A stretch of 64,000 nucleotides of DNA. Origin: Ignisphaera sp. (GTDB lineage Archaea; Thermoproteota; Thermoprotei_A; Sulfolobales; Ignisphaeraceae). Both the position numbers and the translations under genes were made by a program. A model generated the notes under the pieces. The model had not been told where the DNA came from, made no database searches, and saw nothing but the letters and a program-made list of their open reading frames with translations. Location: contig JAWAHS010000002.1 in assembly GCA_038889075.1 (NCBI GenBank), positions 140,930 through 204,929 of the forward strand, read 5' to 3'. Below, piece by piece: positions 43,024 to 60,211 of this stretch (within the stretch, counting starts at the first letter, position 1; each line of letters begins with the position of its first letter).

Positions 43024-44040
43024 GTGATATCCATTACTAAAAAATTGATGAATAGACCTGAGGATATTGTTAGGGAAATGTTGGAGGGTATGGCACTCGC
43101 ATTTCCTGATATAATAAGATTGGATCCTCAGTGGAACAATGTTTATAGGAGGTATAGAAAACCTACTAACAAGGTTGCTCTCGTATGTGGCGGAGGAAGT
43201 GGACATGAACCAGCGCAAGCTGGCTATGTAGGTTATGGAATGCTTGATGCAGTTGCAGCTGGACATGTATTTACAGCACCTCCTGCACCACAGGTATTTG
43301 CAGCAATAAATGAGGTAGCTAATGATGCAGGGGTTTTGGTTATAGTTACGAACTATACTGGAGATGTTATGAATTTTGGTATTGCTATAAAGATGGCTAG
43401 TGCAAAGGGTATCAAAGTCGATTACATTATCGTGAACGACGACGTTGCTATTCAAGATCCACCTAGGAGGAGAGGAACAACCATCACTATTCTCATTAAT
43501 AAGATTGCAGGAGCGGCAGCTGAGGAAGGGAAAGATCTCGGTGAGGTTAAGAAGGTGGCGCAAAAAGTTCTTGATAATGGTAGGGATATAGGTGTAGCTT
43601 TAACACCATGTGTACTACCTACTACAGGAAAGCCGACATTCGAACTAGCATTAGATGAGATAGAGTTTGGTATAGGTGTACATGGAGAAGCGGGTGTAAG
43701 AAGGATAAAGTACATTCCATCGAAAGATTTAGCAAGAATGATGGTAGACGCCATAGTTGATGATCTAAAGTTGCAAAAAGGTGATGAATTAGCATTGGTT
43801 GTCCAGGGTACGGGTGGTACACCATATATGGAGAAGTTTGTATTTTATAGAGATGTGAGACTGTATGTCGAATCCCTAGGGTTTAAAGTATTTGCAAGTT
43901 GGGTTGGCGAGTTCTTCACTTCATTAGATATGCAGGGAGCGAGGGTGGCTATTTTAAGGCTTGATGAGGAATTGAAGAGGCTTCTCATGGCACCAGCATA
44001 TACAATTGCTATTAGAACTCCTGGTGTGGTTATATCGTAG
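43024..44040 (+). CDS. dhaK: Dihydroxyacetone kinase subunit K
   Basis: GGGSGHEP, NYTGDVMNF, DDVA, RRG, substrate His in GVHGEAG, TSLDM.G. Confidence 0.92.
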   Translation: MISITKKLMNRPEDIVREMLEGMALAFPDIIRLDPQWNNVYRRYRKPTNKVALVCGGGSGHEPAQAGYVGYGMLDAVAAGHVFTAPPAPQVFAAINEVANDAGVLVIVTNYTGDVMNFGIAIKMASAKGIKVDYIIVNDDVAIQDPPRRRGTTITILINKIAGAAAEEGKDLGEVKKVAQKVLDNGRDIGVALTPCVLPTTGKPTFELALDEIEFGIGVHGEAGVRRIKYIPSKDLARMMVDAIVDDLKLQKGDELALVVQGTGGTPYMEKFVFYRDVRLYVESLGFKVFASWVGEFFTSLDMQGARVAILRLDEELKRLLMAPAYTIAIRTPGVVIS

Positions 44041-44056
44041 TATAAAAGGGGTTGGT

Positions 44057-44707
44057 ATGGATAGACTGAGCTCGAGAGATATCTATAGCATTATTCTACT
44101 GGCCAAGCGATACATAGCAGAGAATAGAGAAGAGCTTTCGCGACTCGACTCTGTAATTGGGGACGGAGATTTCGGTATCAATATAAATAGAGGGTTTGAA
44201 CTTGCTATAGAAAGGCTTAGTACAATAGATCCTGATAAAACAGATATTGGAACAATATTGATGACTGTTGCAAATGCATTGCTGGAGAGTGTTGGAGGAG
44301 CTTCAGGACCACTATTTGGTGGGCTGTTCATGAATATGGCCATGACCTCTTTAGGTAAATACGAAGTGGATTTGGCAACAATAGCCAACATGTTCAATGA
44401 TGGTCTTAAAGGGGTGCGAGAAATAGGAGGGGGGACAATGCCTGGCGATAAAACACTTATTGATTCGCTGTACCCAGCTGTAGAAGCATTACAGCAAGCA
44501 GTTAGGGAAAATAGAGATATTGTAGCAGCATTTAAGGATGCATTAATAGCTGCTGAAAGAGGTGCTAAGGCAACAGCAAATATGGTTGCAAAAAGAGGTA
44601 GAGCTAGCTATCTTGGTGTGAGAAGTATAGGTCATCAAGATCCAGGAGCTACGGCAATATATCTAATAATTAAAGCATTCCATGACTATACCTCAGGTAA
44701 ACGATGA
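44057..44707 (+). CDS. dhaL: Dihydroxyacetone kinase subunit L
   Basis: LDSVIGDGDFG, GGASGPL, GDKTLID, GRASYLG.RS.GHQDPGA. Start placed at ATG 44057 after GGGG..GGT. Confidence 0.92.
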   Translation: MDRLSSRDIYSIILLAKRYIAENREELSRLDSVIGDGDFGININRGFELAIERLSTIDPDKTDIGTILMTVANALLESVGGASGPLFGGLFMNMAMTSLGKYEVDLATIANMFNDGLKGVREIGGGTMPGDKTLIDSLYPAVEALQQAVRENRDIVAAFKDALIAAERGAKATANMVAKRGRASYLGVRSIGHQDPGATAIYLIIKAFHDYTSGKR

Positions 44708-44976
44708 AGCTCCTACCTAGATCATCTTATTTGCTTAAATTTCATCACTAGAAGATATTGAATATAGATTCATCAAAATCAAAAACTTCACATTTATTGA
44801 TGAATGTTTAGCATCCTCTTCACATAAGCTTTCTCAGGAATTGTTTCAATCGTTATGTACATTGGTGCGCAGTGAGGCACCGTGAAGTTTCTAGCAATGA
44901 ATGCTAAGAGCTTTCACAATCTATCCAAAACCATACCACTGTGAAATAGATGATAAAGAGTTGGATGCAGACATGG

Positions 44977-46425
44977 TTATAGCAATAGCATCCTGTATTT
45001 GGTAATATTGTTGGTGAAGCCTAGTGCCTTAGAGAATCTGTGTATTAGATTGTATACTTCAGCTTCGTATTTCCTTCTAATATCCTCATCGCTGTAGTAC
45101 AGATTAATTAATTCATTTCTTAATCTCCTATAACCACTGCTATCTCTTATTGCTTGAAATAGATAGAAGTAGTGTCTAAATATGTCAGCTCTAGGACTCC
45201 TTTTATATAGGGGATCTTTATCTTTCTTCTCTTCGTACGCTTTTAAAAGTCTTTCAAGCTCCGGGGAATAGATACCGCTTTTGGTTTTTATTACAGAGTG
45301 TATGTGTTCAAGAACAGAGTCGTAGATTTCATCATAGATTCTTCTTGGCTTAGTTCCAGGTGCGGATTGGTGTAGGATTTCGAGTAGGAGCTGTATCAGC
45401 ACCCCAGACATTTTGTACTTTACGAAACCGCCTGTTGCCATTTTTATAACTTCCCATACTCCACTACCTTTATCAGAGTATGGATTAGCACCGCTACCGG
45501 AGTGTATGGAAATGTATATGCCCAGTGATGAGAGTACCGTATGCAGGTTTTTAACGTGTTCATAGAGTTGATTTACATCTTCAGTGTAATCCTCCCTCTT
45601 TCTAAATCCTATGTTTGGTGCTAGAAAATCTATATTGATACCTCTGTGTAATAATTCCATTGAATAGAATAGAACATCCTTTATACCGGTTTTTAATGGA
45701 AGTTCATCTAGTGCCACTTCTAGTCCAAACTCTCTTTCACTGTATTTCTTAATGATATTCAGTATCCTTTCAATGTATTCGATGCTTCTACTGTACTTCA
45801 ATGCAAGTTTAGCTACATCGATTTTGGTGAATTTAATGAATAGTATCCTATCGTCTGATACAAAGTTGAAATTTCGTAGGAATCTGTTCTCAAGCGATCT
45901 TCTGTAATCAGATTCAAACTGATTTTCATATCTATACAGAAGTTCTTCATTAGAAAGCATCTCAACTTTCGCGTCTACAAGTTCACAAGTGTCTATGGTT
46001 ACAAAATCTACGCCTCCTGCTCTAGCTACTTCTTTGAATTCCTCCTCAATATAGTTTAAAGATTCGTCTATCTCTGTTGTACTTAAACCCTCCTCTATGG
46101 CTACACCTGCTATTCTCTTTAAAGCTCTTTCAACACTACCCATAATAGATACATGGTCGGCTTCAATCTCTATAGGTATTGAAAATTCTTTGGAGAATTC
46201 TTCTGCTTTAGTTATATACTCACTGATCGAGGTACCTGTGTGTCCTAAATAGAAGTGTTTTGGATCTAGAGAGGCTATGAATCTCTGTGGTGCTGTTTCT
46301 CTATTAAATGAAAGCATTAGAGTTCCAGTAATGTTTAGTTCCTTAAAGCTTCTAAGTATGGCAGGTACAACTATTTCCGGGATTCTAATTCCAAAGGCAG
46401 GTCTAGGTATTTTACCTAAATACAT
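44977..46425 (-). CDS. uxaE: Tagaturonate/fructuronate epimerase family protein
   Basis: EADH, TID, EVALDE, LAP..GF.K..DY, SIHSGS..K; hexuronate gene context. Confidence 0.78.
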   Translation of the reverse strand: MYLGKIPRPAFGIRIPEIVVPAILRSFKELNITGTLMLSFNRETAPQRFIASLDPKHFYLGHTGTSISEYITKAEEFSKEFSIPIEIEADHVSIMGSVERALKRIAGVAIEEGLSTTEIDESLNYIEEEFKEVARAGGVDFVTIDTCELVDAKVEMLSNEELLYRYENQFESDYRRSLENRFLRNFNFVSDDRILFIKFTKIDVAKLALKYSRSIEYIERILNIIKKYSEREFGLEVALDELPLKTGIKDVLFYSMELLHRGINIDFLAPNIGFRKREDYTEDVNQLYEHVKNLHTVLSSLGIYISIHSGSGANPYSDKGSGVWEVIKMATGGFVKYKMSGVLIQLLLEILHQSAPGTKPRRIYDEIYDSVLEHIHSVIKTKSGIYSPELERLLKAYEEKKDKDPLYKRSPRADIFRHYFYLFQAIRDSSGYRRLRNELINLYYSDEDIRRKYEAEVYNLIHRFSKALGFTNNITKYRMLLL

Positions 46426-46510
46426 TTATTGATACCCATAAGGGGTAAAATTCAGCAGCTAAAAACTTTTAAGTATTTTGAAATTTGGAGAGTATAGATG
46501 GGAGATAGCC

Positions 46511-47440
46511 ATGCTATATGGCTACACTGTCAGAAGAGGGCACGAAATTGTAGCAAGATTTCCATGGGATATAGGTATCGTTGCCTTTATGATATTTCCA
46601 GATTTGACACAATTAACTAAAGACTTTAGTGAGAGATTGAAACCCTTAATTGTAGACCCATTTTTCGATTTAATTGAAATGACACCCATAGTAGATGATG
46701 TAGAGTGGAATAAAGTCGCGAAACTAAATGAGGATTACGAAAAGAGATTTGCACTAGCACTTCAGCCACTTATAATAAATAGAGGTTTAAATGTTAATGC
46801 TCTAGATGAAGTGGAAAGAAGAAAAGCAGTTGAATTCATACTCAACGAGGTTCGTAGAGCAGGTTTGAGAGGAATGAAGGCTGTAGGTCTGTGCTCAGGA
46901 CCCAATGTGGAGGGTCCTAATAGGGAAGTAGCTATGGAAGCCCTTGTCAAAAGCCTTACTGAAATTGGAAGCGAGGCCTCTAAATATGGTATGAAGGTAT
47001 TCTTAGAGACGTTCGATATCATGTGGGATAGAAAAAGACTCGTTGGACCACTATCAGAGACGGTAAAGGTCGTAGAGAAGGTAAGGGAGGCTGTTAGAGA
47101 TGTTTACATAATGTGGGATCTAAGCCATGCTCCATTATTAAATGAGGAACCCGAGGTGCTGAAATCCTATCCAGAGTTCGTAGGCCATATACACATAGGA
47201 TGTGGAAAGAAAGTTGGTGATAAACTCCTAGATACACATCCAGGCTTCTATAGACCAGGAGCTCTCAATACAGAGGTGGATGTTGTAAGACTCCTCAGAG
47301 TGCTACACGATATTGGGTATAAGGGTGCTATCAGTTTTGAAATAAAACCAGAACAGGATCAGAATCCATTTGAAGCACTGAATGCTGGAAAGGGTGTTCT
47401 GCTAAGGGCATTTCAACTATATCTAGATTCAATACTCTAG
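46511..47440 (+). CDS. Sugar phosphate isomerase/epimerase (TIM barrel)
   Basis: LE.FD, WDLSH, HIHIG, DTHP, SFE metal-ligand pattern. Confidence 0.8.
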   Translation: MLYGYTVRRGHEIVARFPWDIGIVAFMIFPDLTQLTKDFSERLKPLIVDPFFDLIEMTPIVDDVEWNKVAKLNEDYEKRFALALQPLIINRGLNVNALDEVERRKAVEFILNEVRRAGLRGMKAVGLCSGPNVEGPNREVAMEALVKSLTEIGSEASKYGMKVFLETFDIMWDRKRLVGPLSETVKVVEKVREAVRDVYIMWDLSHAPLLNEEPEVLKSYPEFVGHIHIGCGKKVGDKLLDTHPGFYRPGALNTEVDVVRLLRVLHDIGYKGAISFEIKPEQDQNPFEALNAGKGVLLRAFQLYLDSIL

Positions 47441-47510
47441 CGAATCTGTATACAGTAACTTAGCCATAACGCTTTTAAACTAAATCTCTTTTTCTTTTTG
47501 GGGATGCATC

Positions 47511-48464
47511 TTGATAAATATAGTTACTTATAGAGAATTAAAAGATGTTGAAGCATTAGAATATTCTTGTAGAATACACAATGTAGCCTTTCCTTATGAT
47601 AGCGTAGAGTGCGATATATACAAATCATTCATAGTGGATGATGAAAACTTTAATGAAGAGTTCACACTATTTGCGATTGATAAAGAGAATAGAATTAGAG
47701 GATTCTTAATAGGTGTTGAAATATCCAAGGAGCCTAGGGATGCAGTGAACAATTTTAGAGAGTATATTTGGATAAAGGATCTAGCCATAGATATAGCGCT
47801 TCCTTCTGATGAGTGGAGGAAGGTTTTCATAGGGTTACTCTCATCATTCGAGGAAATGGTAAAAAGATATGGAAAGAAGCATATTGTCCTCTATGCTTAT
47901 GCACCGTACTATTTCATGCCAGGTATCAACATACTTTACGAAGATTATGTTGAGATGTTCGAAGTCTATGGATTTAAAAAACGTGAAGATTCTGTTAACT
48001 ATGAGGTGAATCTATCAGAATTCTATTACCCAGATAGAGTTAGAAAAATCGAAAATACGTTAGTGTCTGAGGGGATACTATTTAGAAAAGGAAGGAACGG
48101 AGAAGCGCCATATGTAAGTGAATGGGTTGGTAAAACGTTTAACAACCCGTTCTGGCGTTTAGAAACCGAGTACTCCTTCAGAAGCAAACCTCCGACTATA
48201 TGGATAGCAGAACAAGGTGGTGAGTTAATAGGATTCGCAGTATACCTCCGTATGAAACGAAATGAGTTTGGACCTGTAGGAGTGGATCCGAATAGAAGAA
48301 GACATGGTGTTGGTACGGTGTTGCTATTTAAAGCGTTATATGATTTAAAGCAGCTAGGATTTAAATACGCAGTTATACCATGGACATCGCACCTATTCTT
48401 CTATACGCAGGTACCGGGGATAGCTAGAATCAAACACTATTATATAATGACCAAAACTCTGTAG
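47511..48464 (+). CDS. Tandem GNAT N-acetyltransferase
   Basis: C-terminal acetyl-CoA motif FGPVGVDPNRRRHGVG; degenerate N-terminal GNAT domain. Confidence 0.8.
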   Translation: MINIVTYRELKDVEALEYSCRIHNVAFPYDSVECDIYKSFIVDDENFNEEFTLFAIDKENRIRGFLIGVEISKEPRDAVNNFREYIWIKDLAIDIALPSDEWRKVFIGLLSSFEEMVKRYGKKHIVLYAYAPYYFMPGINILYEDYVEMFEVYGFKKREDSVNYEVNLSEFYYPDRVRKIENTLVSEGILFRKGRNGEAPYVSEWVGKTFNNPFWRLETEYSFRSKPPTIWIAEQGGELIGFAVYLRMKRNEFGPVGVDPNRRRHGVGTVLLFKALYDLKQLGFKYAVIPWTSHLFFYTQVPGIARIKHYYIMTKTL

Positions 48465-48522
48465 GTAAAATAGTGTAGACAGGTTTACAATCAGAAGTGC
48501 AGTTCCTTAGAGTAGAATGAAG

Positions 48523-49341
48523 TTAGAGCTCGTCTAGAATCTTTTTTATTATCCTAACCAACCCTGAATACGATTCCCTTGTTCCCTCCTCCTTGCTTCC
48601 AGATTGAGGTACGTAGTGTGTTTCCAGCGATAGAATAATGTCTCTATCTCTACTTATAACATCCCTTAACTGTCCCTCATAATCTATCATACCTTTGCCA
48701 ATGGGTTTAAATACAAATTTACCATTTTCTACCGATGCATCTTTTAGATGAAGGTAAAGTATCTGATCCTTGATTTTACTGTAGCCGTATGGATAGGGTG
48801 TTTCTCTAGCAAAGAATGCATTGCCGGGATCCCATAGCACCTTCACATATCTACTCTTTAATTTATCCAGAAGCATCCGAAGCTCTGTGCCTGTGCCGAT
48901 GAAGCACGAATATTCATTTTCAACTATTAAATGAACACCCTCTTCTTCGGCTAGTTCTATGGCAGGTTGAAATTTCTCTACTATTTTATCAATATACAGA
49001 TCTAGCGAACCCTGCCACCAGAATGTAAATATCCTTGTATACCCAAGGTCGAAGAATTTCGATATCTCGATTGCTCTCCTTAGTATAGATAGATGGTCCC
49101 TATACCCTCTTTCATCATCAATGTAAATCTTGAATGTAGGGGAACACACATGTGAAACCTTGATACCATATCTATCTACAAGTTTTCTCACATCACGGAG
49201 CTGACCATCAGAAAGCTCAACAATATATCTATTCCATAGTGTTCTAAGCTCAACATAGCTGGCTCCAAGCTCTTTAATAACCTTTAAAGCGTGTTCAAAA
49301 TCCTGTGAGATTTCATCAGATATTATTGATAGATTTGACAA
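48523..49341 (-). CDS. Sugar phosphate isomerase/epimerase (TIM barrel)
   Basis: ISDEI, VELR, VENE, WDPGN, HLKD, SLETH. Start placed at TTG 49341 after GGGTG, which removes the overlap with the divergent gene. Confidence 0.85.
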   Translation of the reverse strand: MSNLSIISDEISQDFEHALKVIKELGASYVELRTLWNRYIVELSDGQLRDVRKLVDRYGIKVSHVCSPTFKIYIDDERGYRDHLSILRRAIEISKFFDLGYTRIFTFWWQGSLDLYIDKIVEKFQPAIELAEEEGVHLIVENEYSCFIGTGTELRMLLDKLKSRYVKVLWDPGNAFFARETPYPYGYSKIKDQILYLHLKDASVENGKFVFKPIGKGMIDYEGQLRDVISRDRDIILSLETHYVPQSGSKEEGTRESYSGLVRIIKKILDEL

Positions 49342-49425
49342 GGGGTTGCACCCATATCGATACTCTGTAAACAGCTGTATTAAAAATTTATATATTTGAG
49401 TGATGGAATATAGCGGGGGTAGGCC

Positions 49426-50496
49426 ATGCCCCATAGGATAGGTGTAGCCGTAGTTGGTCTCGGTGCTATTGGACGTGTTCACGTTGAAGCCATTAAAGAT
49501 CTTGAGAGGTCCACGGATTACGTGAAACTTGTTGGTGTTACCTGTTTAAATCGGTCTCTTATCGATGGATTTGCATCTAGATATGGATGCAAAGGGTACT
49601 ACTCATATGACGATGTTGTTAGGGATCCAGAGGTGGATGTTGTAACAATAGCAACTCCCCATTATCTGCATGCATGGCAGGCTATGTATGCTATGGAATT
49701 TGGTAAGCATGTTATTGTAGAGAAACCTATTGCAACAACAGTAACAGCTGCAAAGGAGATGATATTAAAGGCTAGGCGTAAAGGAATTAAGCTAGGCGTA
49801 ATCTATCAGGGGAGGTATGCTGATGGTGTGAGGGAGCTTAAGAAACATCTAGATGGTGAGTCAATTGGTAAACCACTGCTGGTCATAGGTGAGATGATGT
49901 GGTTTAGAGATGAAGCGACGTATTATCTAAAGGATGAACTTGCTAGAAGTTGGAGAGGTATGTGGTCGACAGAAGGTGGAGGGGCATTAATAAATCAGGC
50001 AATACACACGATAGATTTAATGTTATGGTTTGGAGGCGAGGTTGATGAGGTAGTCGGATATATTGACAACCTTGTACACCAATCTATAGATGTTGAGGAT
50101 ATCGGTATAGGGTTGATGAAGTATAGAAGGGGAGGATACGGTGTTCTCACTGCAAATCTCTTTACAAAACCATCTACATATCAGTATAGAAAGATAAGGG
50201 TATTTGGTACAAAGGGGCAAGCTGAACTATGGGATAACGAGTTGGTTCTACTAAAGAGTGAAGAAGGTCTATCAATAGAGAGAAGTCCTGGATATTCAAC
50301 TGAAACAATAAAGGTTCCAGGTGGACTACATAGGAGATTGTTTGAGGACTTCTTTATGGCACTACTTAACGACAGAGACTTTCCAATAACAGGTGAGGAA
50401 GGGTTAAAGAGCCTTGAGATAGTTAGAGCCATATACTATTCAAGTACAAGAAAAGTGCACGTAAAACTTCCATTAGAGGTTGATGGTATTCTATGA
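49426..50496 (+). CDS. Gfo/Idh/MocA family oxidoreductase
   Basis: GLGAIG, ATPHYLH, VEKP, WRG....GGGALINQAIHTID. Confidence 0.92.
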   Translation: MPHRIGVAVVGLGAIGRVHVEAIKDLERSTDYVKLVGVTCLNRSLIDGFASRYGCKGYYSYDDVVRDPEVDVVTIATPHYLHAWQAMYAMEFGKHVIVEKPIATTVTAAKEMILKARRKGIKLGVIYQGRYADGVRELKKHLDGESIGKPLLVIGEMMWFRDEATYYLKDELARSWRGMWSTEGGGALINQAIHTIDLMLWFGGEVDEVVGYIDNLVHQSIDVEDIGIGLMKYRRGGYGVLTANLFTKPSTYQYRKIRVFGTKGQAELWDNELVLLKSEEGLSIERSPGYSTETIKVPGGLHRRLFEDFFMALLNDRDFPITGEEGLKSLEIVRAIYYSSTRKVHVKLPLEVDGIL

Positions 50497-51290
50497 AATT
50501 TACATTTACAACTCTAGCATATCCGCATCTAAAACTTGAAGAGGTTCTCGAAAGAGCTAAGATATTTGGTTTAGATGCAATCGAACTCAGAGTAGCTGAA
50601 GATGGAATACACATTAAGCCGCACTATCCTATTGATAAAACATATCTGAGGATTATAGAGGAAAGTGGTGTGAAGATAGCATCCATCGCTGGATATGCCA
50701 GATTCTCCTCTATATCTGATGAAGAGAGGAAGAGGAATGAGGATCTACTCAGAACCCTCATTTTAATGGCTGAGGAACTTGGAGCAAAGGCTGTAAGGGT
50801 GTATGCAGGTAGGTTTCCAGATGATGTGGAGAACTCAATTAGGAGAATATCTGAGAGCTTAAATAGACTGGCAGAATACTCTTATAAACACAACGTCTAC
50901 ATAGCCATAGAAACACACGATGAGCTAACAAAACTTGAGGTACTACTAAAGCTTCTCGGAAAACTCCATCCAGAGATAAAAATACTGTACGATGTAGCTA
51001 ACATGATTATGGTGGGAGAAAGACATGAGAAGGTATTTCCACACATAGCGGAGAGGATAGTGCATGTACATGTAAAGGACTTCGTTATAGTAGAGGGTAA
51101 GAGGGTCTTTGTAAGACCTGGAAGAGGTGTAGTACCCATCTGTAAAGTTCTAAATGATCTCAAATCAATAGGATACCGGGGCTACGTCTCTGTTGAGTGG
51201 GAGAAAATGTGGCATCCAGAGCTTGAGGATCCGGATACAGTAATACCGCTATACATAGATTTTATGAAGAGATGCTTAAACAATATTTAG
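50493..51290 (+). CDS. Sugar phosphate isomerase/epimerase (TIM barrel)
   Basis: IELR, IETHD, YDVAN, HVHVKD, SVEWEK.WHP; ATGA coupling to the oxidoreductase gene. Confidence 0.85.
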   Translation: MKFTFTTLAYPHLKLEEVLERAKIFGLDAIELRVAEDGIHIKPHYPIDKTYLRIIEESGVKIASIAGYARFSSISDEERKRNEDLLRTLILMAEELGAKAVRVYAGRFPDDVENSIRRISESLNRLAEYSYKHNVYIAIETHDELTKLEVLLKLLGKLHPEIKILYDVANMIMVGERHEKVFPHIAERIVHVHVKDFVIVEGKRVFVRPGRGVVPICKVLNDLKSIGYRGYVSVEWEKMWHPELEDPDTVIPLYIDFMKRCLNNI

Positions 51291-51404
51291 ATTTACTTAA
51301 TTTTGCTTACCCTTTAACCAGTTTTCCAGTACGGCTATAGATAAGTTTTTAAAGAGAGGTCACGGACTTCTTTCTCTAGCCTCAGGATGTGGTGAAATAA
51401 CTTT

Positions 51405-53546
51405 ATGAAGATATCAAAAGAAAATGTAATCGATATTCTAAAAAGAGCTAAGGTAGACGCTCTCTCATTACCAATGGAACCACGCATAGATCATGCTGAT
51501 CATATAATCAAAACGTCGTTAATGGGATGGACGAAACTCGCAGCTGATCATATTTTACATCCAGAAATGGGTAGTTGTTTGATAGATGTTGTAGGTTCCC
51601 TTATTAGGAGAATAGGTCTACTTATTAGAAGTGAAAGAATAGATGATGGATCAAGTGCCGAGGAAGGGATAGTTCGAAGAGCAAGACTATATGATACTAT
51701 GTTTGAGATGGTATTCAATTTGGTTGGTGCTGAAAGTAGATGGGCAGGCTTTGCCTCAGAAATGGTTGAGCAGGTTGTGACGACCATCAAAAACGCATTT
51801 GATGAATGGGAGGATATTGAAAGAAGAGAGCTTGGTGAACCGATAGTTATTGAGGCCGTCATCGAACTTCAGCTCAGAGAGTTGATGAAGGTTAATAAAG
51901 GTAGGAGCCTTGTTGCAGAGATTGCACAAAGAGTTTCAAAGAAGGTATCGAAGTTAGGGTGTGCAAGAAGCTATATAGAGGCTATGATATATGAAATCAG
52001 AAATAACTTCTATAGAAAGGCATACGATTTAAACCTTTGCAAGTTTGGTAACGATTACGCACTTGGCTTGCGATTCTTGAGACATCTAGGATTTGTTCAA
52101 GTTTCGACAAATCCTGTATTAGCGGCTAGAGCCTACGATGATGATTCTGAGCTATGGAGTAGGTTTAGGAAATATGCAGAGGAAATTCTCGTGAAGGAGC
52201 ATCCAGAATGGTTTAGAGAGCCTGAGAGATACGCTGACGATATAACCATGGAGGCAACCAGGTTTGCACTACTAGATAATTTCTACGTATTTAGGATACC
52301 ATTTATACTATCAAAGTATCATGATGGTCTGGTGAGCTATCAATTAAATCCACTGATTGCACATGACGTTGAGAAGAGTGTGGAAGCTGTAAAAATATTT
52401 GCCACTAGATTGGAGAAAGATCTAGCAATATACGATGAATATCTCTGGTGGGGTTATAGTGTTCCTGAGAAGGGAAGACCGGATCTTGTTATAAAGGTAG
52501 CAGCAGCATATCCTGCAGCAATTGAAATTGCCGAGAGGATAAACGAAATGGGTGTAGGTCAGAATATTACGGTAAGCTACACTGTTAGTCAGGAGGTTCT
52601 GATAGGTGTTGCTGCTATGAAGGGTATGGCAAAGGCTATAAAGAAAGGAATTATGCCGACCCAAACCTACGATACAAACATGGGTGGTAGATTGGAGGAT
52701 CACCTTAGGGAAGATATAGCTGCCAGACTTCTTCTAAAGGGGTTGGAGAAGGTAGAGGAGCATAGAAGGTGGGCTGTATTAGATAAATTAGCAAAAGGTC
52801 TAGGAGTAAAGGAGGATGTATGGGGTGAGGTGAAGAGAAAAGGTCTGAAGAGTGCTGTAGATCACCTATGTAGTCATAGGGTACTGGGCAGGAATATGGT
52901 AAGAGATCCATATATAGATGCGCTGGTGGAGCTGAATATCTATGGTACTAGAGAGGAGACGTTGAAAAATGTTAAGATGCTTGAAGAGGCTATAGAGCTT
53001 TCGGGAACCTTTGTAGCCCAGAGAGTATATGAGATACTATTCTCACCTTGGAATCGTGAAAAGTGGATAAACTACCTCATCAATGAAGTGGGTATTACCA
53101 GGGAACAGGCTGAAATAGTAATTGATAGAATAGATCTCCTTCCAGCATCTAAGAGAAAGCCTATCGACACCCTCTATACATTTGCTTCTAGGAATATGAC
53201 AAATACTGAGTTCCCCGATCACCAACTAAAGGTTGTAAATGAGGTTGCGGAGAAAGGTATAGAGCTCGATGAAATTAGGGAGTCTATATACCAGACCCTG
53301 GAGAATCGATACCTAGAGATATTGATGCAGTATGAGGATTTTGTAAAAGCATACGAATCTTCTCCTGAGCTAAATGACCTCCTTAAGAAAGTTGGCATAG
53401 ATAAAGACTATGGGAATAGAGGTGTAAGTCCTGCTGATTGGCCAAGGTACGGACCGTGTGTAAAGACTATGAATGAATTCACTAATGAGTACCTAGCATT
53501 TAGATCAAAGGTTGTAGAACTTATAAAAACTATATCATCTCCATAA
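51405..53546 (+). CDS. Transaldolase/FSA-family protein with a long N-terminal extension
   Basis: GND, STNP, VSYQLNP, Schiff-base VIKV, NITVSY, GGRLED. Confidence 0.75.
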   Translation: MKISKENVIDILKRAKVDALSLPMEPRIDHADHIIKTSLMGWTKLAADHILHPEMGSCLIDVVGSLIRRIGLLIRSERIDDGSSAEEGIVRRARLYDTMFEMVFNLVGAESRWAGFASEMVEQVVTTIKNAFDEWEDIERRELGEPIVIEAVIELQLRELMKVNKGRSLVAEIAQRVSKKVSKLGCARSYIEAMIYEIRNNFYRKAYDLNLCKFGNDYALGLRFLRHLGFVQVSTNPVLAARAYDDDSELWSRFRKYAEEILVKEHPEWFREPERYADDITMEATRFALLDNFYVFRIPFILSKYHDGLVSYQLNPLIAHDVEKSVEAVKIFATRLEKDLAIYDEYLWWGYSVPEKGRPDLVIKVAAAYPAAIEIAERINEMGVGQNITVSYTVSQEVLIGVAAMKGMAKAIKKGIMPTQTYDTNMGGRLEDHLREDIAARLLLKGLEKVEEHRRWAVLDKLAKGLGVKEDVWGEVKRKGLKSAVDHLCSHRVLGRNMVRDPYIDALVELNIYGTREETLKNVKMLEEAIELSGTFVAQRVYEILFSPWNREKWINYLINEVGITREQAEIVIDRIDLLPASKRKPIDTLYTFASRNMTNTEFPDHQLKVVNEVAEKGIELDEIRESIYQTLENRYLEILMQYEDFVKAYESSPELNDLLKKVGIDKDYGNRGVSPADWPRYGPCVKTMNEFTNEYLAFRSKVVELIKTISSP

Positions 53547-53592
53547 CCAGCTTTACAACAATTAACTTAGTATTGTTTGGTGGTCTACCCCC

Positions 53593-54876
53593 TTGTCCAA
53601 GTTGTATAGTGAGTTATTTGGGGAAATAAAGGATATACCAGTTATCGATGTACATCAACATCTGAACCCATTATCACTCTCGGCTAAGAGTATTGATGAT
53701 ATTGTGTTCTACCACTATATAGTAACAGAACTTGCATCCTCTGGTATGTCTAGAGAGCTTCTCGAAAGGTATAGAGGGGTTGAGAGGTTAAAGGTAGCAG
53801 CAAACTACATCAAGTACATAAGGAATACCTCTACCTTCTGGTGCTTAAAGTCTATACTCAGAGATCTCTATGGTTTCGAACTAAGAGGTTTAGAGCCAAG
53901 TAATGTAGAGGAGCTGGTTACCGCAGTTAGTCAGAAATTTAGCGATGAGACATGGGCTAAGCACATCTTAAGGGATAGAGTTCCCGTAGAAAAGTCGTTT
54001 CTAACAATAAATCCACTTGAAAGGATGGTACAATATGACAGGGAGCTGTTTACAGGAGCTCTAAGAATGGATCCAATACTACCTAACTTGACCCAGTCTG
54101 GTTTAAGGCATTTAGAGGGGATATTATCGCTAGAGATAGTAAATTCCAGTATACTTGAAGAGGCGATTATAGCCATCCTTAAGAGATTTATAGGAAGTAT
54201 TGTGGCTGTTACAATAAATGTTCAGCCAGACGACGAATTCATCTCTCTAGCTACTAGTAGAAGCGATAAATCTACTGTAGATACTTACCTGAGTGTCTTA
54301 AGATCACAAGGTATACTAGATCCTCTAGCTAGAAGTACCATTGCATCATATATTCTTAGAATCGTACTTGGATTCTGTGAAGAACAGAAGTTAGCTGTTC
54401 AATTGATGCTAGGTGTAAAGAGACCTGTAGCAGGTGCCTCACCACCAGATTATGCTATAACTCTATTCAATCCCCGTCAGATTATTGATCTAGCGAAACT
54501 CTTTTCAGCATATCCAGCCGTAAAATTCGATGTATTTATAGCAGATGCTTTGATGAATCATCCAATGACAGTTATAGCCAAGAACTACCCCAACGTTTAT
54601 CTAAGTGGATACTGGTGGTACTCTATGTATCCAGAATTGATTAGATCATACCTCCGTTTAAGACTTCAGATGCTACCATATAATAAAATAGGCGGATTCT
54701 TTAGCGATGCATATATAGCAGACTGGGTCTATGGAAAGGCAGTGCTAGCCAAGAGTCAGTTAGCACATATATTGACAAACTTTATTGAAGAGGGATTCAT
54801 AGACAAGGAAACAGCACTTGAGATAGCAAGAGCACTTCTAAATGAAAATGCAAAGTCTCTATACAACCTGATATAG
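53593..54876 (+). CDS. uxaC: Uronate (glucuronate) isomerase
   Basis: IDVHQHL, YHY...EL, QLMLG, WWY, FSDAY. Confidence 0.8.
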   Translation: MSKLYSELFGEIKDIPVIDVHQHLNPLSLSAKSIDDIVFYHYIVTELASSGMSRELLERYRGVERLKVAANYIKYIRNTSTFWCLKSILRDLYGFELRGLEPSNVEELVTAVSQKFSDETWAKHILRDRVPVEKSFLTINPLERMVQYDRELFTGALRMDPILPNLTQSGLRHLEGILSLEIVNSSILEEAIIAILKRFIGSIVAVTINVQPDDEFISLATSRSDKSTVDTYLSVLRSQGILDPLARSTIASYILRIVLGFCEEQKLAVQLMLGVKRPVAGASPPDYAITLFNPRQIIDLAKLFSAYPAVKFDVFIADALMNHPMTVIAKNYPNVYLSGYWWYSMYPELIRSYLRLRLQMLPYNKIGGFFSDAYIADWVYGKAVLAKSQLAHILTNFIEEGFIDKETALEIARALLNENAKSLYNLI

Positions 54877-54960
54877 CATTTTTAAGATTCTTAAAAGGAT
54901 TGTCTATTAGGGCAAACCTTATATATCTAATCCCTCTTCTATAGCATGCTGTGAACAGAG

Positions 54961-56700
54961 TTGAAATCGTGGTTCAGACCTAGAATACCTCTCGATGGTT
55001 TTTGGAAATTCAAAATGGATAGGGAACTGGTTGGCGATAGAGAGGAGTGGTATAGAGGGTTTAGCTCAGCTGATCTCATATATGTTCCATCATCTTGGAA
55101 TGAACAAAATCCAGAATGGGATCAATTCACTGGTGTGGCTTGGTATCAGAGGGATTTCTATGTCGATGGTTCTCTAAAAGGTAAGCTAGCATGGATTATC
55201 TTCGATGGTGCTGGATACAGGGCTAGGGTATGGGTGAACGGCAATTTCATAGGGGAACACGAGGGGTCATTTACACAGTTTAGATTTGGTGTTGGCAGCA
55301 TCAAATATGGTGATTTAAATAGAATTGTTGTTAGGATAGACAATACACCATCGGTATCCGACTTACCTCCAGCAAGGGAGCTTAATGTAACAGCTTTTGA
55401 CTTCTTTCACTATGGGGGTATCCATAGACCTACATACTTAGAGTTTACAGATACGTGCTATGTTGACGACGTCACCATAAATGCGGGTGGCGATGGAAGC
55501 TTTAAGACATCCATTGATATAGTATGCAACAGACGTGTTGATGTAAAGCTTGCTTTAATGGATAAGGAGTTGTCAGAGGTATTGTTTGAGGAGATGATAA
55601 GAGATGTTGAACCTGGTCAATTCAGATATGAGAGGAGATTCGATGGTGTCAGGCCGTGGAGTCCTGAAGATCCGAATCTATATAACTTTGTTGTTGAGAT
55701 CTATACAGATGGTGTTATGAGGGACTCGGTTTATGAACGTATAGGGTTTAGAACTATTGAAGTTAGAGGGGGGAAGATATATTTAAATGGACGACCAGTA
55801 TTCCTCAAGGGGTTTGGCAGACATGAAGATTTCCCAGTACTGGGTAAGTACATGCATGGTGCAGTTCTCATAAGAGACTTCTACCTAATGAAGAAAATAG
55901 GTGCCAATTCCTTTAGAACCACACACTATCCATATTCAAATGAACATCTAGATCTAGCTGACGAATTTGGCTTTATGGTGATTCTAGAGCCCCCGCTATG
56001 CTACTCAGGTATGGATCGTATACTTAGTAGAGAGGAGATAGCGAAACTCTTTAGTAGTGAGGAATACTTCACGAAGGCAAGAAGATTTGTTGAGGAGATG
56101 GTGAAGCAACATAAGAATAGACCATCAGTAATAATGTATAGTGTAACAAACGAACCGCCAAGCGATATACCAGAGGTAGCAGAATTTATAAAAAGAATGG
56201 CTCATCTCTTTAAAGAGCTGGATCCTTCAAGGCCAACAACATTTGCCTCTCATAGATCCATCAGAGATCTCGCCCTAGGTCATGTAGATGTGATATCGCT
56301 TAACTATTATCGTGGCTGGTACTCCGAATGGGGTGATATAGCAAGGGGTACTGAAGTTATGCTAAAAGAGGTAGAGCAAATCCATCAGAGATTTCCAGAA
56401 AAACCGATAATTATAACAGAATTTGGAGCAGATGCCTATCTAGGACTACACAGCGATCCACCACAGATGTGGTCAGAGGAATACCAGGCAGAAATGATTA
56501 GAAGCTATGTTGAGGTGCTGAGTAAGAGGGATTATGTAGTAGGGTTACATATATGGAATTTCGCAGACTTTAGAACCCCGCAGAATCCACTAAGAACAAT
56601 ATTGAATAGAAAAGGAATCTACAGCAGAGATAGACAGCCAAAGCTATCAGCATTAATATTATCAAAACTATTTAAAAATATACCCACATTCATAGAATAG
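54961..56700 (+). CDS. uidA: Beta-glucuronidase (GH2)
   Basis: DFFHYGGIHR, GFGRHED, FRTTHYP, acid/base TNEP, nucleophile TEFGAD, WNFADF, and the glucuronidase-type NRKG motif. Confidence 0.9.
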   Translation: MKSWFRPRIPLDGFWKFKMDRELVGDREEWYRGFSSADLIYVPSSWNEQNPEWDQFTGVAWYQRDFYVDGSLKGKLAWIIFDGAGYRARVWVNGNFIGEHEGSFTQFRFGVGSIKYGDLNRIVVRIDNTPSVSDLPPARELNVTAFDFFHYGGIHRPTYLEFTDTCYVDDVTINAGGDGSFKTSIDIVCNRRVDVKLALMDKELSEVLFEEMIRDVEPGQFRYERRFDGVRPWSPEDPNLYNFVVEIYTDGVMRDSVYERIGFRTIEVRGGKIYLNGRPVFLKGFGRHEDFPVLGKYMHGAVLIRDFYLMKKIGANSFRTTHYPYSNEHLDLADEFGFMVILEPPLCYSGMDRILSREEIAKLFSSEEYFTKARRFVEEMVKQHKNRPSVIMYSVTNEPPSDIPEVAEFIKRMAHLFKELDPSRPTTFASHRSIRDLALGHVDVISLNYYRGWYSEWGDIARGTEVMLKEVEQIHQRFPEKPIIITEFGADAYLGLHSDPPQMWSEEYQAEMIRSYVEVLSKRDYVVGLHIWNFADFRTPQNPLRTILNRKGIYSRDRQPKLSALILSKLFKNIPTFIE

Positions 56701-56822: not shown

Positions 56823-59234
56823 GTGCTGCAGATGATATTAGGTAGAACCCTCGCCTCTATACTTATAGCTACAATTATAATTTTATCACTTCTATCAACA
56901 GTCACCATACAGAATCTAAATGCACAGCTTGCGTTGCCACCAGGCGTTAAAAGAGAGGAAACCGTTATCTTCGATGTTCAGATAAGTAGCGTTGCCAATC
57001 CAGATAACTGGAATCCCTGGGTTATAGGCACACAGGCTACAGTTATAGGTATTAACCAAGTCTGTATGTCACCACTCTACTACACTGACTACAAGGATGG
57101 TGTGACAAAGCCGTGGGTTGCAGAAAGCCTACCCACCTACAGCCCTGACTTTAAGGAGCTAACAATAAAGATTGTAAAAGGCATATACTGGAGTGATGGA
57201 ACACCATTTACAGCCAGGGATATCGTGTATGCTATAAATGTCTCTAAAGCAAATAGTAAGCTAAGTCCATATGCAACCCTAAATGCATGGGTGGAGTCTG
57301 CATGGGTTGTAGACGACTATACGCTTACCATAAGGCTCAAAACTCCAAATCCATACTTCCACTACATGGCCTTTACCTTGATAGGCCCCGGCATATACAA
57401 CTACATGATGCCGAAACACTACTTTGATGCCAACGGTATTACCGCAGAAAATGCGCACACATTTCTCTACAACCCACCGCTGTGTATAGGACCATATGTA
57501 CTCCACTCATACGACCCTGGCGGTACGTGGTTCCTGTGGAAGAGAAGGGATGACTGGGACAGGTCCTCAATTAAGCCACTCTACGATAAAAAGATTGTTC
57601 TATGGCCTGGCCCCAAGTATGTTATGTTTAGAGTGTTTAAGACCGAGACGGATAAGATTGTAGCAATGGCTAGAGGAGAACTCGATTGGATTTTTGATGC
57701 CACTTGGCAGGCATGGGAGTCTCTAAAGAGGATGCTTGGTGATAGGGTGCAGGCATGGTTACCGTATTATCCATATTTCTGGGGCTATGATACAACAGTT
57801 AGAGGTATATACTTTAACAATATGAGGTATCCATATAACATAACTATGGTTAGATGGGCACTCACACTAGCCATAAACATGACGGAGGTTATGACAATAG
57901 GGTATAAGGGTGTGCAGAGAATGACTGTAGTACCGAGTGCTGCTGCATGGCCAGCGGAGGCATTCCTAACATACACACTTTTACTAGACGATCTACTCAA
58001 CATGGAGCTAACACTACCAAATGGATCAAAGATTAAGGTTTACGATCCATCACATCCAATTAGAGTATATCAATGGGCTAGAGCCACAGGTCTACTAACA
58101 AAGGACTTAACGGAATCTGAAATTAGGTGGAACTGGGGTGCTGGATGGTGGAGATACGCACCAGATGCAGCAGAACAGATATTAAGAAGTCTGGGATTCT
58201 CTAGAGGACCAGACAAAAAATGGAGGCTTCCAGATGGAACACCATGGAAAATGAAGTTAAATATACCTGCAGGTTTCGAATTTGATGCCATAGATCTAGG
58301 TCTAGCTGTTGCAGAACAGTGGAGGAAATTTGGAATAGATGTAGAGGTAATACCACTAGAGGCAGCAACATTCTGGACTCCTCAATTAAACTATGGAGCA
58401 TTTGAAGTAGGTTCATACTGGGGTACAAGTGGAAATGATCCTAATGCAATACCAATACACCTCGAAGGATGGAGATGCGCCTACGTAAAGCCCATAGGGG
58501 AGTATTCACCAAATGGTGCGAGATACTGTAATCCAAAGTTTGATGAAGCACTACTAAAAGCTATGACCAATCCACCAGGAACCCCTGAAATGATAAATTC
58601 TCTGAAGGAGGCTATACTAACAATGATTAAAGATATGCCAGTTGCATGGGCTGGAAACTGTAAAAAGCTACTACCGGTCCTAACAGACTACTGGACCAAC
58701 TGGCCATCAGCCTACAACTTCTATACAGGTATCAAACTATGGGGTAATCAAATGGCACAGCAGGTAATAGGCAACCTAATACCAGTTAAATCAACTATAG
58801 ATACTCCAACAAGTAGACCTATAAATGAACCACCACCAGGCACGATAACATTCCCAGCACTTCCAGAAGAAGCGATGAAGAAACTAGCAGCAGCCTTGGT
58901 AAAGCCTACCCCTACCCCGACTCCAACGCCAACACCTACACCATCTCCTACTCCTAGGCCAACCCCGACACCTACCCCAACACCTACCCCAACCCCAACA
59001 CCTACCCCAACACCTACTCCTTCGCCTACTCCTGTGCCTGGTGCTGTAACAGTTACCGTTACTAGAACAGAAACAGCAACAGTAACATCAACAGCAGTAG
59101 TAACATCAACAGCAGTATCAACAACAACAGCAACAAAAACAGAGACAGTAACAGAATGGACAACAACAACAGCACTAGCAATAGCACTACTAATAATAGG
59201 AATAGCAATAGGATGGTTCATAAAAAGAAAATAG
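56823..59234 (+). CDS. Family 5 (Opp/Dpp-type) ABC substrate-binding protein, probably for oligosaccharides, with a PT/T-rich linker and C-terminal TM anchor
   Basis: Signal peptide, WSDGTPFTARD, IGPY, VRWAL..AIN, PT repeats, terminal TM helix plus KRK. Confidence 0.9.
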   Translation: MLQMILGRTLASILIATIIILSLLSTVTIQNLNAQLALPPGVKREETVIFDVQISSVANPDNWNPWVIGTQATVIGINQVCMSPLYYTDYKDGVTKPWVAESLPTYSPDFKELTIKIVKGIYWSDGTPFTARDIVYAINVSKANSKLSPYATLNAWVESAWVVDDYTLTIRLKTPNPYFHYMAFTLIGPGIYNYMMPKHYFDANGITAENAHTFLYNPPLCIGPYVLHSYDPGGTWFLWKRRDDWDRSSIKPLYDKKIVLWPGPKYVMFRVFKTETDKIVAMARGELDWIFDATWQAWESLKRMLGDRVQAWLPYYPYFWGYDTTVRGIYFNNMRYPYNITMVRWALTLAINMTEVMTIGYKGVQRMTVVPSAAAWPAEAFLTYTLLLDDLLNMELTLPNGSKIKVYDPSHPIRVYQWARATGLLTKDLTESEIRWNWGAGWWRYAPDAAEQILRSLGFSRGPDKKWRLPDGTPWKMKLNIPAGFEFDAIDLGLAVAEQWRKFGIDVEVIPLEAATFWTPQLNYGAFEVGSYWGTSGNDPNAIPIHLEGWRCAYVKPIGEYSPNGARYCNPKFDEALLKAMTNPPGTPEMINSLKEAILTMIKDMPVAWAGNCKKLLPVLTDYWTNWPSAYNFYTGIKLWGNQMAQQVIGNLIPVKSTIDTPTSRPINEPPPGTITFPALPEEAMKKLAAALVKPTPTPTPTPTPTPSPTPRPTPTPTPTPTPTPTPTPTPTPSPTPVPGAVTVTVTRTETATVTSTAVVTSTAVSTTTATKTETVTEWTTTTALAIALLIIGIAIGWFIKRK
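58905..59033 (+). repeat. Pro-Thr dipeptide repeat coding region
   Basis: About 20 (P-T/S/R) units with varied codons. Confidence 0.85.
59082..59117 (+). repeat. 18-bp tandem duplication (VTSTAV x2)
   Basis: GTAACATCAACAGCAGTA occurs twice, exactly. Confidence 0.9.
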
Positions 59235-59253: not shown

Positions 59254-59293
59254 AAATTTCAAACTACTACTTTTTATTCATTAGGTGTTTTTA

Positions 59294-60211
59294 ATGGTTA
59301 TAGAGAGGCTTATGGATGGATTTAGAGTTAAGGTATTTTATGTTAATGATATTATTATTGGTATCGCATTGGATATCGGTCCTAGGATACTGTATCTAGC
59401 TCCTAAGGAAAGACCAGAGCTCAATCTATTTAGCATTTTACCTGATTTTGGTGTTAGTACTGAGGAAGGGTTTTGGAGAATATATGGAGGTCATAGGCTT
59501 TGGGTTTCACCTGAGGCGATGCCGAGATCCTATTCCCTTGATGACAAGGGTATCTCAGTCGAGGTTAAGGAGGATAATATTGTGGTGGTAGGTAATCCAG
59601 AACCGCAGAATTGTATTTTGAAAAGTATTGTAATAAAGCCCTCTTCTGTGAGTGGAGTTATTGAAGTTGTTCACAATATTACCAATATTGGTAGATGGCC
59701 TTTAGAGTTTTCTTGTTGGGCTCTCTCAGTTATGAAAAGGGGAGGATTTGCTATAGTACCTATAAAGCCTATGCCCGTTAATGGTAAGGGTCTTCTACCC
59801 GATAGAGTGCTATCTATATGGCCCTATACAAGGCTAACAGATGAAAGGTTCATTCTTTCAGATAATTACATATTTGTAGTTCAAAATCCGTCCATAGAAA
59901 GGCCGTTTAAAATAGGAGCCAGGGCGAATCCTCCATGGATAGGTTATTACGTAGATGGTTATGTCTTCGTAAAAATGTTTAGATATGAAAAAGAACTGTA
60001 TCCTGATTTCAATGTCTCGGTAGAGGTTTATACAAATAATCTATTCCTAGAGCTTGAAACAATAGGACCCTTGAGGAGGATAGATCCAGGTGGAACCAAT
60101 ATACATACTGAGTTTTGGAAAATTGTAAAGGTAGGTGATCTAAAGCCCAACGAAAACGATATAGTGAATAAATTAGAGCCTATTTTAGGTTCACTGTTTT
60201 CTAACTCTTAG
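59294..60211 (+). CDS. Conserved hypothetical protein (DUF4380-like / aldose-epimerase-like)
   Basis: GPRIL, YGGHRLW.SPE, ELET.GP...H.E.W; located in the sugar cluster. Confidence 0.65.
   Translation: MVIERLMDGFRVKVFYVNDIIIGIALDIGPRILYLAPKERPELNLFSILPDFGVSTEEGFWRIYGGHRLWVSPEAMPRSYSLDDKGISVEVKEDNIVVVGNPEPQNCILKSIVIKPSSVSGVIEVVHNITNIGRWPLEFSCWALSVMKRGGFAIVPIKPMPVNGKGLLPDRVLSIWPYTRLTDERFILSDNYIFVVQNPSIERPFKIGARANPPWIGYYVDGYVFVKMFRYEKELYPDFNVSVEVYTNNLFLELETIGPLRRIDPGGTNIHTEFWKIVKVGDLKPNENDIVNKLEPILGSLFSNS

Follow-up and report, generated by a model that had tools for sequence, protein, structure and literature searches.

The stretch of DNA analysed here (hereafter the window) comprises 64,000 nucleotides of the Ignisphaera sp. 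assembly GCA_038889075.1 (contig JAWAHS010000002.1, positions 140,930 to 204,929; G000:C2:140930-204929 in our numbering), which totals 1.95 Mb and is 99.58% complete. Based upon a listing of its open reading frames (ORFs) and upon Pfam and NCBIfam scans, the window carries a cluster of sugar-acid genes (Table 1) whose central member specifies a transaldolase-family protein of 713 amino acids (aa), the subject of this report. An earlier reading made from the letters alone (the sequence-only reading) had named six ORFs here, those of DhaK, DhaL, a UxaE-like epimerase, the transaldolase-family protein, a uronate isomerase and a glycoside hydrolase of family 2 (GH2), and all were recovered where it had placed them. 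The spacing of about 45 bp which it gave between the transaldolase-like gene and the isomerase gene on the same strand corresponds to a stop-to-start gap of 46 nt. Five genes lying between the epimerase and transaldolase-like genes had gone unmentioned, namely three xylose-isomerase-like TIM barrels, a GNAT protein and a Gfo/Idh/MocA oxidoreductase. The window does lack, as had been stated, any mannonate or altronate dehydratase, 2-keto-3-deoxygluconate (KDG) kinase or 2-keto-3-deoxy-6-phosphogluconate (KDPG) aldolase; the PfkB kinase and DHDPS-family aldolase genes of the genome all lie outside it.

Table 1. Genes of the cluster, with positions in the window
Feature	Position	Strand	Match or remark
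DhaK	43024-44040	+	Dak1 376 bits; TIGR02363 383 bits vs cut-off 406
DhaL	44006-44707	+	TIGR02365 190 bits vs cut-off 138
482-aa UxaE-family ketose/keto-uronate 4-epimerase-like protein	44977-46425	-	PF16257 87.8 bits
320-aa xylose-isomerase-like TIM barrel, IolO / ketose 3-epimerase kind (cluster c1)	46478-47440	+	
317-aa protein with C-terminal GNAT acetyltransferase domain	47511-48464	+	beside c1 in 6 loci
319-aa xylose-isomerase-like TIM barrel (c12)	48523-49482	-	AP_endonuc_2 109 bits; NCBIfam epimerase/IolE matches weak
356-aa Gfo/Idh/MocA oxidoreductase, distantly IolG-like (c4)	49426-50496	+	TIGR04380 122.9 bits vs cut-off 355
265-aa xylose-isomerase-like TIM barrel (c12)	50493-51290	+	AP_endonuc_2 126 bits
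713-aa TAL_FSA protein, candidate keto-uronate (trans)aldolase	51405-53546	+	PF00923 33.2 bits vs cut-off 27
427-aa uronate-isomerase-related amidohydrolase	53593-54876	+	PDB 4i6v 2e-39
GH2 beta-glucuronidase-type hydrolase	54961-56700	+	PDB 4jkm 3e-103
803-aa family-5 solute-binding protein of ATP-binding cassette (ABC) importer	56823-59234	+	SBP_bac_5 153.5 bits

The PF00923 match of the 713-aa protein covers residues 223-400 only (34.8 bits in a search of its own genome). An AlphaFold2 model built with 45 homologs (predicted local distance difference test 94.7, predicted template modelling score 0.91) has a helical N-terminal domain at about residues 1-210; the transaldolase barrel starts near residue 213 and is interrupted between its strands by a helical insertion (about 430-575), and the C-terminal region is helical as well. 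Its best Foldseek matches were all transaldolases [template modelling (TM) score on the target 0.65-0.69, identity 10-15%], and the 37 matches listed at E <= 0.001 are transaldolases or aldolases of the same family. The barrel is common to fructose-6-phosphate aldolase (FSA) and the classical transaldolases of PF00923, among them those of Neisseria gonorrhoeae [3clm, 7oey], Corynebacterium glutamicum [3r5e] and Escherichia coli [TalB, 1onr], at target TM scores of 0.58-0.69. These enzymes measure about 220-350 aa, whereas the 713-aa protein adds the N-terminal domain of about 210 aa, an insertion of about 145 aa within the barrel and a C-terminal extension. A phmmer search of PDB with the 713-aa protein returned only a chance match to a HIT protein, and hhalign against the small transaldolase homolog of the same genome aligned only the lysine strand.

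Residues D217, S234-T235-N236-P237, Q313, K364, N387, T389, R429, K583 and R584 are invariant in the 45 homologs and S582 is nearly so. K364 aligns with the lysine of IKIP or IKVPAT in the genome's small homolog and in 3r5e and 3clm, and the Schiff-base lysine, the T-N-P motif, the Asn/Thr following the lysine strand and an Arg/Ser/Arg anion site are shared with FSA and the transaldolases. R429, S582 and R584 are presumably the counterparts of the TalB phosphate site. Because SYQLNP aligns with VS[IL]EV[DS]P of 3r5e and 3clm, Gln313 occupies the position of their Glu, which we take to be Glu96 of TalB; the catalytic Glu of classical transaldolase (EC 2.2.1.2) is not retained and a Gln stands instead, as it presumably does in FSA (Gln59). 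The position of TalB Phe178 and FSA Tyr131 appears to be taken by Met426, judged from a by-eye match of TNMGGR with SPF/YVGR. The label E93Q of 7oey was considered as marking the catalytic Glu and was dropped; the aligned column is still E in that structure. Based upon its fold and retained residues, the 713-aa protein is predicted to be of the class I aldolase type and intact, with a pocket for anions and a change resembling that of FSA. The small homolog, of 222 aa (G000:C5:73347-74015; locus L015:1474-2142, minus strand), also has Gln (HVQVPG) in the catalytic-Glu column and may itself be FSA-like rather than a transaldolase.

Homologs of the 713-aa protein in a large protein collection number 720, the best 120 of which are about 700-750 aa in length and archaeal where named. 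Clustering at 50% gave about 12 full-length clusters, and the remoter relatives have about 450-590 aa. A metagenome scan with a 583-aa bacterial relative (P0212) returned two loci only, both of them ordinary 215-aa transaldolases. Size and sequence both fall outside the known subfamilies, and we would regard these proteins as a long-form branch of the transaldolase/FSA superfamily, compact and hitherto uncharacterised.

Of 401 Thermoproteota genomes which formed a single fixed sample, 57 have the transaldolase-like family, with one copy in each. The UxaE-like gene occurs in 28 genomes, and 27 of these also carry the family; the single non-carrier is an 82%-complete genome belonging to a genus which otherwise carries it. 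Isomerase orthologs (E <= 1e-85) were found in 36 genomes, 31 being carriers (37 of 50 at 1e-10), and one taxonomic family (f30) has the transaldolase-like enzyme in 12 of 12 genomes and the isomerase in none. IolN, the 3-dehydro-scyllo-inosose hydrolase, was detected at E <= 1e-30 in 27 of the 56 other carriers as against 4 of 104 non-carriers selected by genome handle; with the curated cut-off the same genomes give 15 and 0. Of the 27 epimerase genomes tested for IolN, 22 have it. Fisher tests gave extreme values for UxaE, IolN and the isomerase and no signal for DhaK, though the p-values overstate the case since the genomes are related. In one complete genome of the same genus (G211:C1:319526-320951) the UxaE-like gene which lies beside the transaldolase-like gene is itself broken into two pieces, with one TGA and one TAA inside the larger match.

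A second line of evidence comes from 51 homolog loci which, with the window, make 52, their ORFs having been clustered by BLASTP and a neighbour being defined as a gene within eight genes. The commonest neighbours of the transaldolase-like gene are c1 TIM barrels (21 of 52 loci; 7 of 20 genera), followed by a glyoxylate reductase [NF009714, 506 bits vs 455] which is present in 17 loci and often stands immediately 3' on the same strand, and by IolG-like Gfo/Idh/MocA oxidoreductases (c4; 14 loci, 5 genera). UxaE-like genes are neighbours in 13 loci, IolM [521 bits vs 450] in nine, a DeoC/LacD-type aldolase whose best match is ADH synthase in eight, and the isomerase in six. GH2, glycerate 2-kinase, inositol-1-phosphate synthase and a fuculokinase-like FGGY kinase were each seen in five, and IolB [234 bits vs 205] and IolN each in four. 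One locus (L086) holds the enzyme together with UxaE-like, c1, IolG-like, IolM, IolO-like (212 bits) and IolN genes in one block. In 17 of the 20 genera at least one of clusters c1, c4, c5, c6, c9, c24 and c32 is nearby. Those UxaE-like and isomerase genes which do not adjoin the transaldolase-like gene have housekeeping surroundings (tRNA synthetase, cytochrome bd, adenosine deaminase, TsaD) and are uninformative.

Furthermore, the two proteins are joined in nature. P0231, a 1084-aa protein from a public assembly which was matched by the family profile, consists of an N-terminal transaldolase-like half, a short-form relative of the 713-aa enzyme, and a C-terminal UxaE-like half. The former keeps the family motifs GNDYA, TTNP, SLQVNP, FKLPGT, MNGRL and ASLR, and residues 642-951 match the UxaE-like protein of the window [BLASTP, 1e-21]. 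The cluster of P0231 includes a second long member, P0278, of 1262 aa. Two further candidates for UxaE fusions, P0224 and P0266, were rejected on testing. Co-occurrence, adjacency and fusion together support a tie of the transaldolase-like family to the UxaE-like epimerase, the isomerase and the genes leading from inositol to tagaturonate.

Genes resembling these last are also present in the Ignisphaera genome. About 50 kb upstream of the window, at C2:80178-92422, one strand specifies an ABC importer and a glyoxylate reductase (594 bits), followed by IolG, IolM, IolN and an IolO-like epimerase. The iol genes proper, which adjoin one another (C2:88202-92422), score 324.7 bits against a cut-off of 355 for IolG, 500.9 against 450 for IolM, 243.7 against 245 for IolN and 194.3 against 300 for IolO. 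The glyoxylate reductase belongs to the same family as the reductase found 3' of the transaldolase-like gene in other genomes. Beyond the operon, on the opposite strand (to C2:94888; locus L121), lie a tagatose-kinase-like PfkB gene and a GatZ-like gene.

In Thermotoga the route beyond tagaturonate proceeds through UxaE, UxuB, UxuA, KdgK and KdgA. IolO of T. maritima is described in PMC12632266, which cites Rodionova et al. 2013, as a 5-keto-L-gluconate 4-epimerase yielding D-tagaturonate. The Ignisphaera genome has in common with the inositol/hexuronate pathway of T. maritima the IolM, IolN (at the cut-off), IolG-like, IolO-like and UxaE-family genes, but the lower half (UxuB, UxuA, Eda) is missing from it and from most carriers, and a glyoxylate reductase gene stands in the operon instead.

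The 427-aa isomerase has no Pfam match and scores 37.2 bits with NF002794, whose cut-off is 387; against PDB it matches 4i6v, named 'Amidohydrolase 2', over its full length, then the BH0493 uronate isomerase [3.5e-12] and the TM0064-type 1j5s [6e-9]. The metal motif H-x-H (HQH) and WWY are seen in the alignment, with VHQHLNP opposite PHSHINP. The name uxaC given by the sequence-only reading is therefore apt as regards kinship with the uronate isomerases and is not apt as regards the canonical enzyme; we would classify the protein, from its alignments, as a distant BH0493/4i6v-type isomerase outside canonical UxaC. The GH2 enzyme resembles E. coli beta-glucuronidase (GUS) [5.6e-93] as well as 4jkm and reaches 446.9 bits with NF007538, under the cut-off of 544. 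Its catalytic NEP and TEFG motifs and an N-x-K motif (NRKGIY vs NKKGIF) align with GUS of E. coli and Clostridium perfringens. N-x-K is the carboxylate motif of beta-glucuronidases, and by sequence the protein is taken as beta-glucuronidase-like.

Cluster c1 contains two merged subgroups, one of about 310 aa and the other of about 265 aa; a member of the shorter subgroup scores as IolO-like. A profile of the long subgroup found TM_0416 (IolO) first [6.5e-30], then ketose 3-epimerases, and YgbM at 6.8e-6; Foldseek returned the same set and did not separate IolO and the ketose 3-epimerases from YgbM. The c1 member of the window itself scores 44 bits with the NCBIfam IolO model (cut-off 300). Since the long-subgroup profile fits IolO and the ketose 3-epimerases far better than YgbM, c1 is taken as an epimerase, and its identification as a hydroxypyruvate isomerase was rejected. 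With c1 so read, the conversion of tartronate semialdehyde to hydroxypyruvate in the route proposed below loses its candidate enzyme.

For the 482-aa UxaE-like protein the PF16257 match (cut-off 27.1) spans residues 134-378 and profile positions 160-390 of 475, and no NCBIfam model matched. The closest solved structures are 9kcs and 9kct, labelled 'isomerase' [6.8e-115], whereas UxaE of Cohnella is found at 2.6e-7. The uxaE label thus stands as membership of the Pfam family, over part of the model, and falls as close kinship with a bona fide UxaE. A tagatose 4-epimerase from Thermoprotei, an archaeal relative reported to act on neutral fructose, is cited in PMC12042125 (Chen et al. 2024), and PMC11907403 notes that Thermotoga UxaE epimerises fructose too.

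The Ashwell pathway, whose dehydratases, kinase and aldolase the sequence-only reading did not see in the window, did not come to light elsewhere either. Family searches of the whole genome gave no match for UxuA, GD_AH (UxaA), Mannitol_dh (UxuB/UxaB), Eda or UxaC (PF02614), every one of which was matched in the control genomes. With the Ashwell pathway of E. coli the Ignisphaera genome shares the point of entry, a uronate isomerase homolog, and a beta-glucuronidase as source; UxuA, UxaA, UxuB, UxaB and Eda are without match, and the isomerase is of the distant type. Among the 56 other carriers UxuA is above the cut-off in nine and strongly so in seven, all of them in three families which have no UxaE-like gene, and Mannitol_dh was found in two. 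What the Ignisphaera genome does hold is three DHDPS-family aldolases, nine PfkB kinases, one weak MR_MLE match, the small TAL/FSA homolog and a glycerate 2-kinase. One of the DHDPS genes lies between a xylose-isomerase-like TIM barrel and a 2-hydroxyacid dehydrogenase. Another is part of a pectin-related cluster (G000:C14:10073-19588; L097) with GH28, a rhamnogalacturonan-lyase-like beta-propeller protein, a DHO_dh/ferredoxin protein and an aldehyde:ferredoxin oxidoreductase; this cluster suggests galacturonate as a natural substrate and may represent a non-phosphorylative KDG-type branch.

A substrate for transaldolase-type chemistry must offer a 1,3-dihydroxy-2-keto unit as well as an anionic tail. 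We consider that the 713-aa protein may well catalyse the carbon-carbon cleavage in a route for hexuronates and inositol other than the Ashwell pathway, though we stop short of calling this probable; its substrate, products and direction and the fate of dihydroxyacetone are what we infer. In the route envisaged, the GH2 enzyme would hydrolyse imported glucuronides and the BH0493-like isomerase would form D-fructuronate, or tagaturonate from galacturonate. The Thermotoga-type IolG-IolM-IolN-IolO operon would carry inositol by way of 5-keto-L-gluconate to tagaturonate. The UxaE-like 4-epimerase, acting at C4, and an IolO-like 3-epimerase paralog, acting at C3, would bring the keto-uronates into the fructo configuration. 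Cleavage between C3 and C4, through a Schiff base at K364, would then yield tartronate semialdehyde and leave a dihydroxyacetone unit bound to the enzyme; where a lineage has IolB, the substrate would be 2-deoxy-5-keto-gluconate and the product malonate semialdehyde. The C3 ketol could be released as in FSA, at which the Gln in the Glu position hints, or be handed to an aldehyde acceptor. The C3 acid would be converted, via hydroxypyruvate, into D-glycerate by glyoxylate/hydroxypyruvate reductase and then into 2-phosphoglycerate by glycerate 2-kinase; the neighbouring reductase and kinase genes fit the proposal because its C3 acid product would need them.

More tentatively, one might see here a third route for hexuronates and inositol, neither Ashwell nor oxidative, of hyperthermophilic archaea and of some bacteria with fused enzymes, in which epimerases converge on D-fructuronate, a giant FSA-like class I aldolase splits it to dihydroxyacetone plus tartronate semialdehyde, and the semialdehyde reaches lower glycolysis by way of hydroxypyruvate, glycerate and 2-phosphoglycerate.

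The sequence-only reading had arrived at the same cleavage of fructuronate, to a dihydroxyacetone unit and tartronate semialdehyde, with DhaK and DhaL as the channel by which dihydroxyacetone is phosphorylated. Genomic context strongly favours the link to keto-uronates and speaks against the link to DhaKL. Co-occurrence holds for the isomerase, the epimerase and the transaldolase-like family and is lacking for DhaKL; DhaK was found in only six of the 401 genomes and in two of the 57 carriers. It is absent from the three other genomes of the same genus. Apart from the window, DhaKL adjoins the cluster in a single close relative (L001, enzyme 86% identical) and not in another (L002, 85%). The rarity of DhaK argues against a dihydroxyacetone kinase being generally needed. 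DhaKL is probably a lineage-specific addition outside the conserved module, and where it flanks the cluster, in two close relatives, it may have been adopted as a local solution. The patchy spread of DhaK suggests recent transfer. The DhaK of the window shares 76% identity with the DhaK of G051, a genome belonging to another family.

Alternatively, the enzyme might act upon neutral or phosphorylated ketohexoses, the UxaE-like protein being an epimerase of tagatose and fructose (or their 6-phosphates) at C4 and the transaldolase-like protein an FSA-type fructose(-6-phosphate) aldolase or transaldolase in galactose and tagatose catabolism. The epimerase is indeed nearest to the 'isomerase' 9kcs, which we guess, and only guess, to be the enzyme of Chen et al. 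mentioned above, and far from bona fide UxaE; a Thermoprotei enzyme of such kind is the one cited as a tagatose 4-epimerase, and the Thermotoga UxaE takes fructose as well. The R429, S582, R584 site presumably resembles the phosphate site of transaldolase. A GH53 galactanase and a DeoC/LacD-family aldolase adjoin the gene in two genera, and the tagatose-kinase-like and GatZ-like genes flank the iol operon. Yet the epimerase keeps company with IolN, whose pathway ends in a keto-uronate, and both the isomerase family and the adjoining N-x-K glucuronidase are, so far as known, specific for uronates. Furthermore, neighbouring genes for glyoxylate/hydroxypyruvate reductase and glycerate kinase fit a C3 acid, not glyceraldehyde 3-phosphate. 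We regard a role in ketohexose metabolism as unlikely.

Several observations weigh against cleavage of a keto-uronate by the 713-aa protein. The epimerase need not act on uronates, because 9kcs is labelled 'isomerase' and a relative is cited as a tagatose 4-epimerase, and the anion site, presumably like that for phosphate, would suit a sugar phosphate as well as a carboxylate. Dihydroxyacetone, if set free, would lack a general sink, because DhaK does not accompany the family. Phylogenetic independence cannot be claimed for the co-occurrence counts, the neighbourhood counts carry no null control, and in 15 of the 57 carriers neither a UxaE-like gene nor an isomerase ortholog was found. Three genera show housekeeping neighbours only, and in some the neighbour is an ADH-synthase or class I aldolase-like gene, or a fuculokinase-like one. 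The DHDPS-family aldolases and PfkB kinases of the genome could complete a cryptic Ashwell-like or KDG route.

Such a route would be made up of non-orthologous enzymes, with a Gfo/Idh/MocA protein, zinc-dependent alcohol dehydrogenase or 2-hydroxyacid dehydrogenase as reductase, a xylose-isomerase-like TIM barrel as dehydratase, a PfkB kinase and a DHDPS-type KDG or KDPG aldolase; the transaldolase-like protein would serve elsewhere, for example in sugar-phosphate rearrangement or the supply of aromatic amino acid precursors. The surroundings of two of the DHDPS genes, by the GH28 and rhamnogalacturonan-lyase-like genes and between the TIM barrel and the dehydrogenase, are consistent with this, as are the nine kinases, the ADH-synthase or class I aldolase-like neighbour in 4 of 20 genera, and the three genera with housekeeping neighbours; UxuA and IolE are themselves TIM-barrel dehydratases of the same fold class. 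It is nevertheless quite improbable, for it leaves unexplained why all epimerase genomes but one carry the family and why the fusion protein exists, a separate small TAL/FSA homolog is already present in the genome, and no DHDPS or PfkB gene lies inside the cluster.

A parallel to the proposed keto-uronate route is the sulfo-transaldolase pathway, in which an enzyme of the transaldolase fold acts on a fructose analogue anionic at C6 and leaves a C3 acid aldehyde for a dehydrogenase. Likened by description only, the two would appear to follow the same pathway logic; the substrate there is a sulfonate and the one proposed here a carboxylate, and the enzyme branch is different and much larger. 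The transaldolases proper serve the pentose phosphate pathway, whereas the context of the 713-aa protein is one of sugar-acid and inositol genes.

A search of the available literature found no description of a keto-uronate or hexuronate aldolase or transaldolase, nor of a 5-ketogluconate aldolase. Among the papers listed as combining any two of fructuronate, transaldolase and tartronate semialdehyde, titles and abstracts contained no such route, and nothing relevant was found on an Ignisphaera transaldolase or on archaeal IolM/IolN inositol genes. The chemistry of the transaldolase/FSA superfamily being known, it is probably the branch, the class of substrate and the pathway which are new. Should the proposal be correct, many Thermoproteota would be credited with the lower half now missing from their inositol and uronate catabolism (UxuA and UxuB are absent from most carriers), and the archaeal glyoxylate/hydroxypyruvate reductases would acquire a physiological role. 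A carboxylate-accepting reaction would join the sulfonate-accepting one in the superfamily, and a thermostable enzyme for carbon-carbon bonds would be at hand for sugar-acid chemistry.

Contigs from the metatranscriptome X15, 95-99% identical to the window, cover the c1 and GNAT genes (46495-48070) and the transaldolase-like gene at 51414-52742; a further contig (52812-54321) spans the junction with the isomerase gene, and GH2 is covered in parts. RNA libraries can contain DNA, and a contig over two genes does not establish a single transcript. Word depth in X15 is about 500 at the binding-protein gene against 0-42 at the neighbouring genes, a repeat being flagged at 59104-59215. Because the depth is so uneven across genes we read the signal as RNA, on what is weak evidence. 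No contig of RNA runs X23 and X24 was placed on the window.

The binding-protein gene is followed 3' by a 308-aa ORF without Pfam match (59285-60211) and by a 374-aa xylose-isomerase-like TIM barrel (60700-61824), both of which are kept in the close relative L001. Far from the cluster, at 4757-4848, ARAGORN reported a tRNA-like gene of 92 nt with an undetermined two-letter anticodon, which may be an intron-containing archaeal tRNA.

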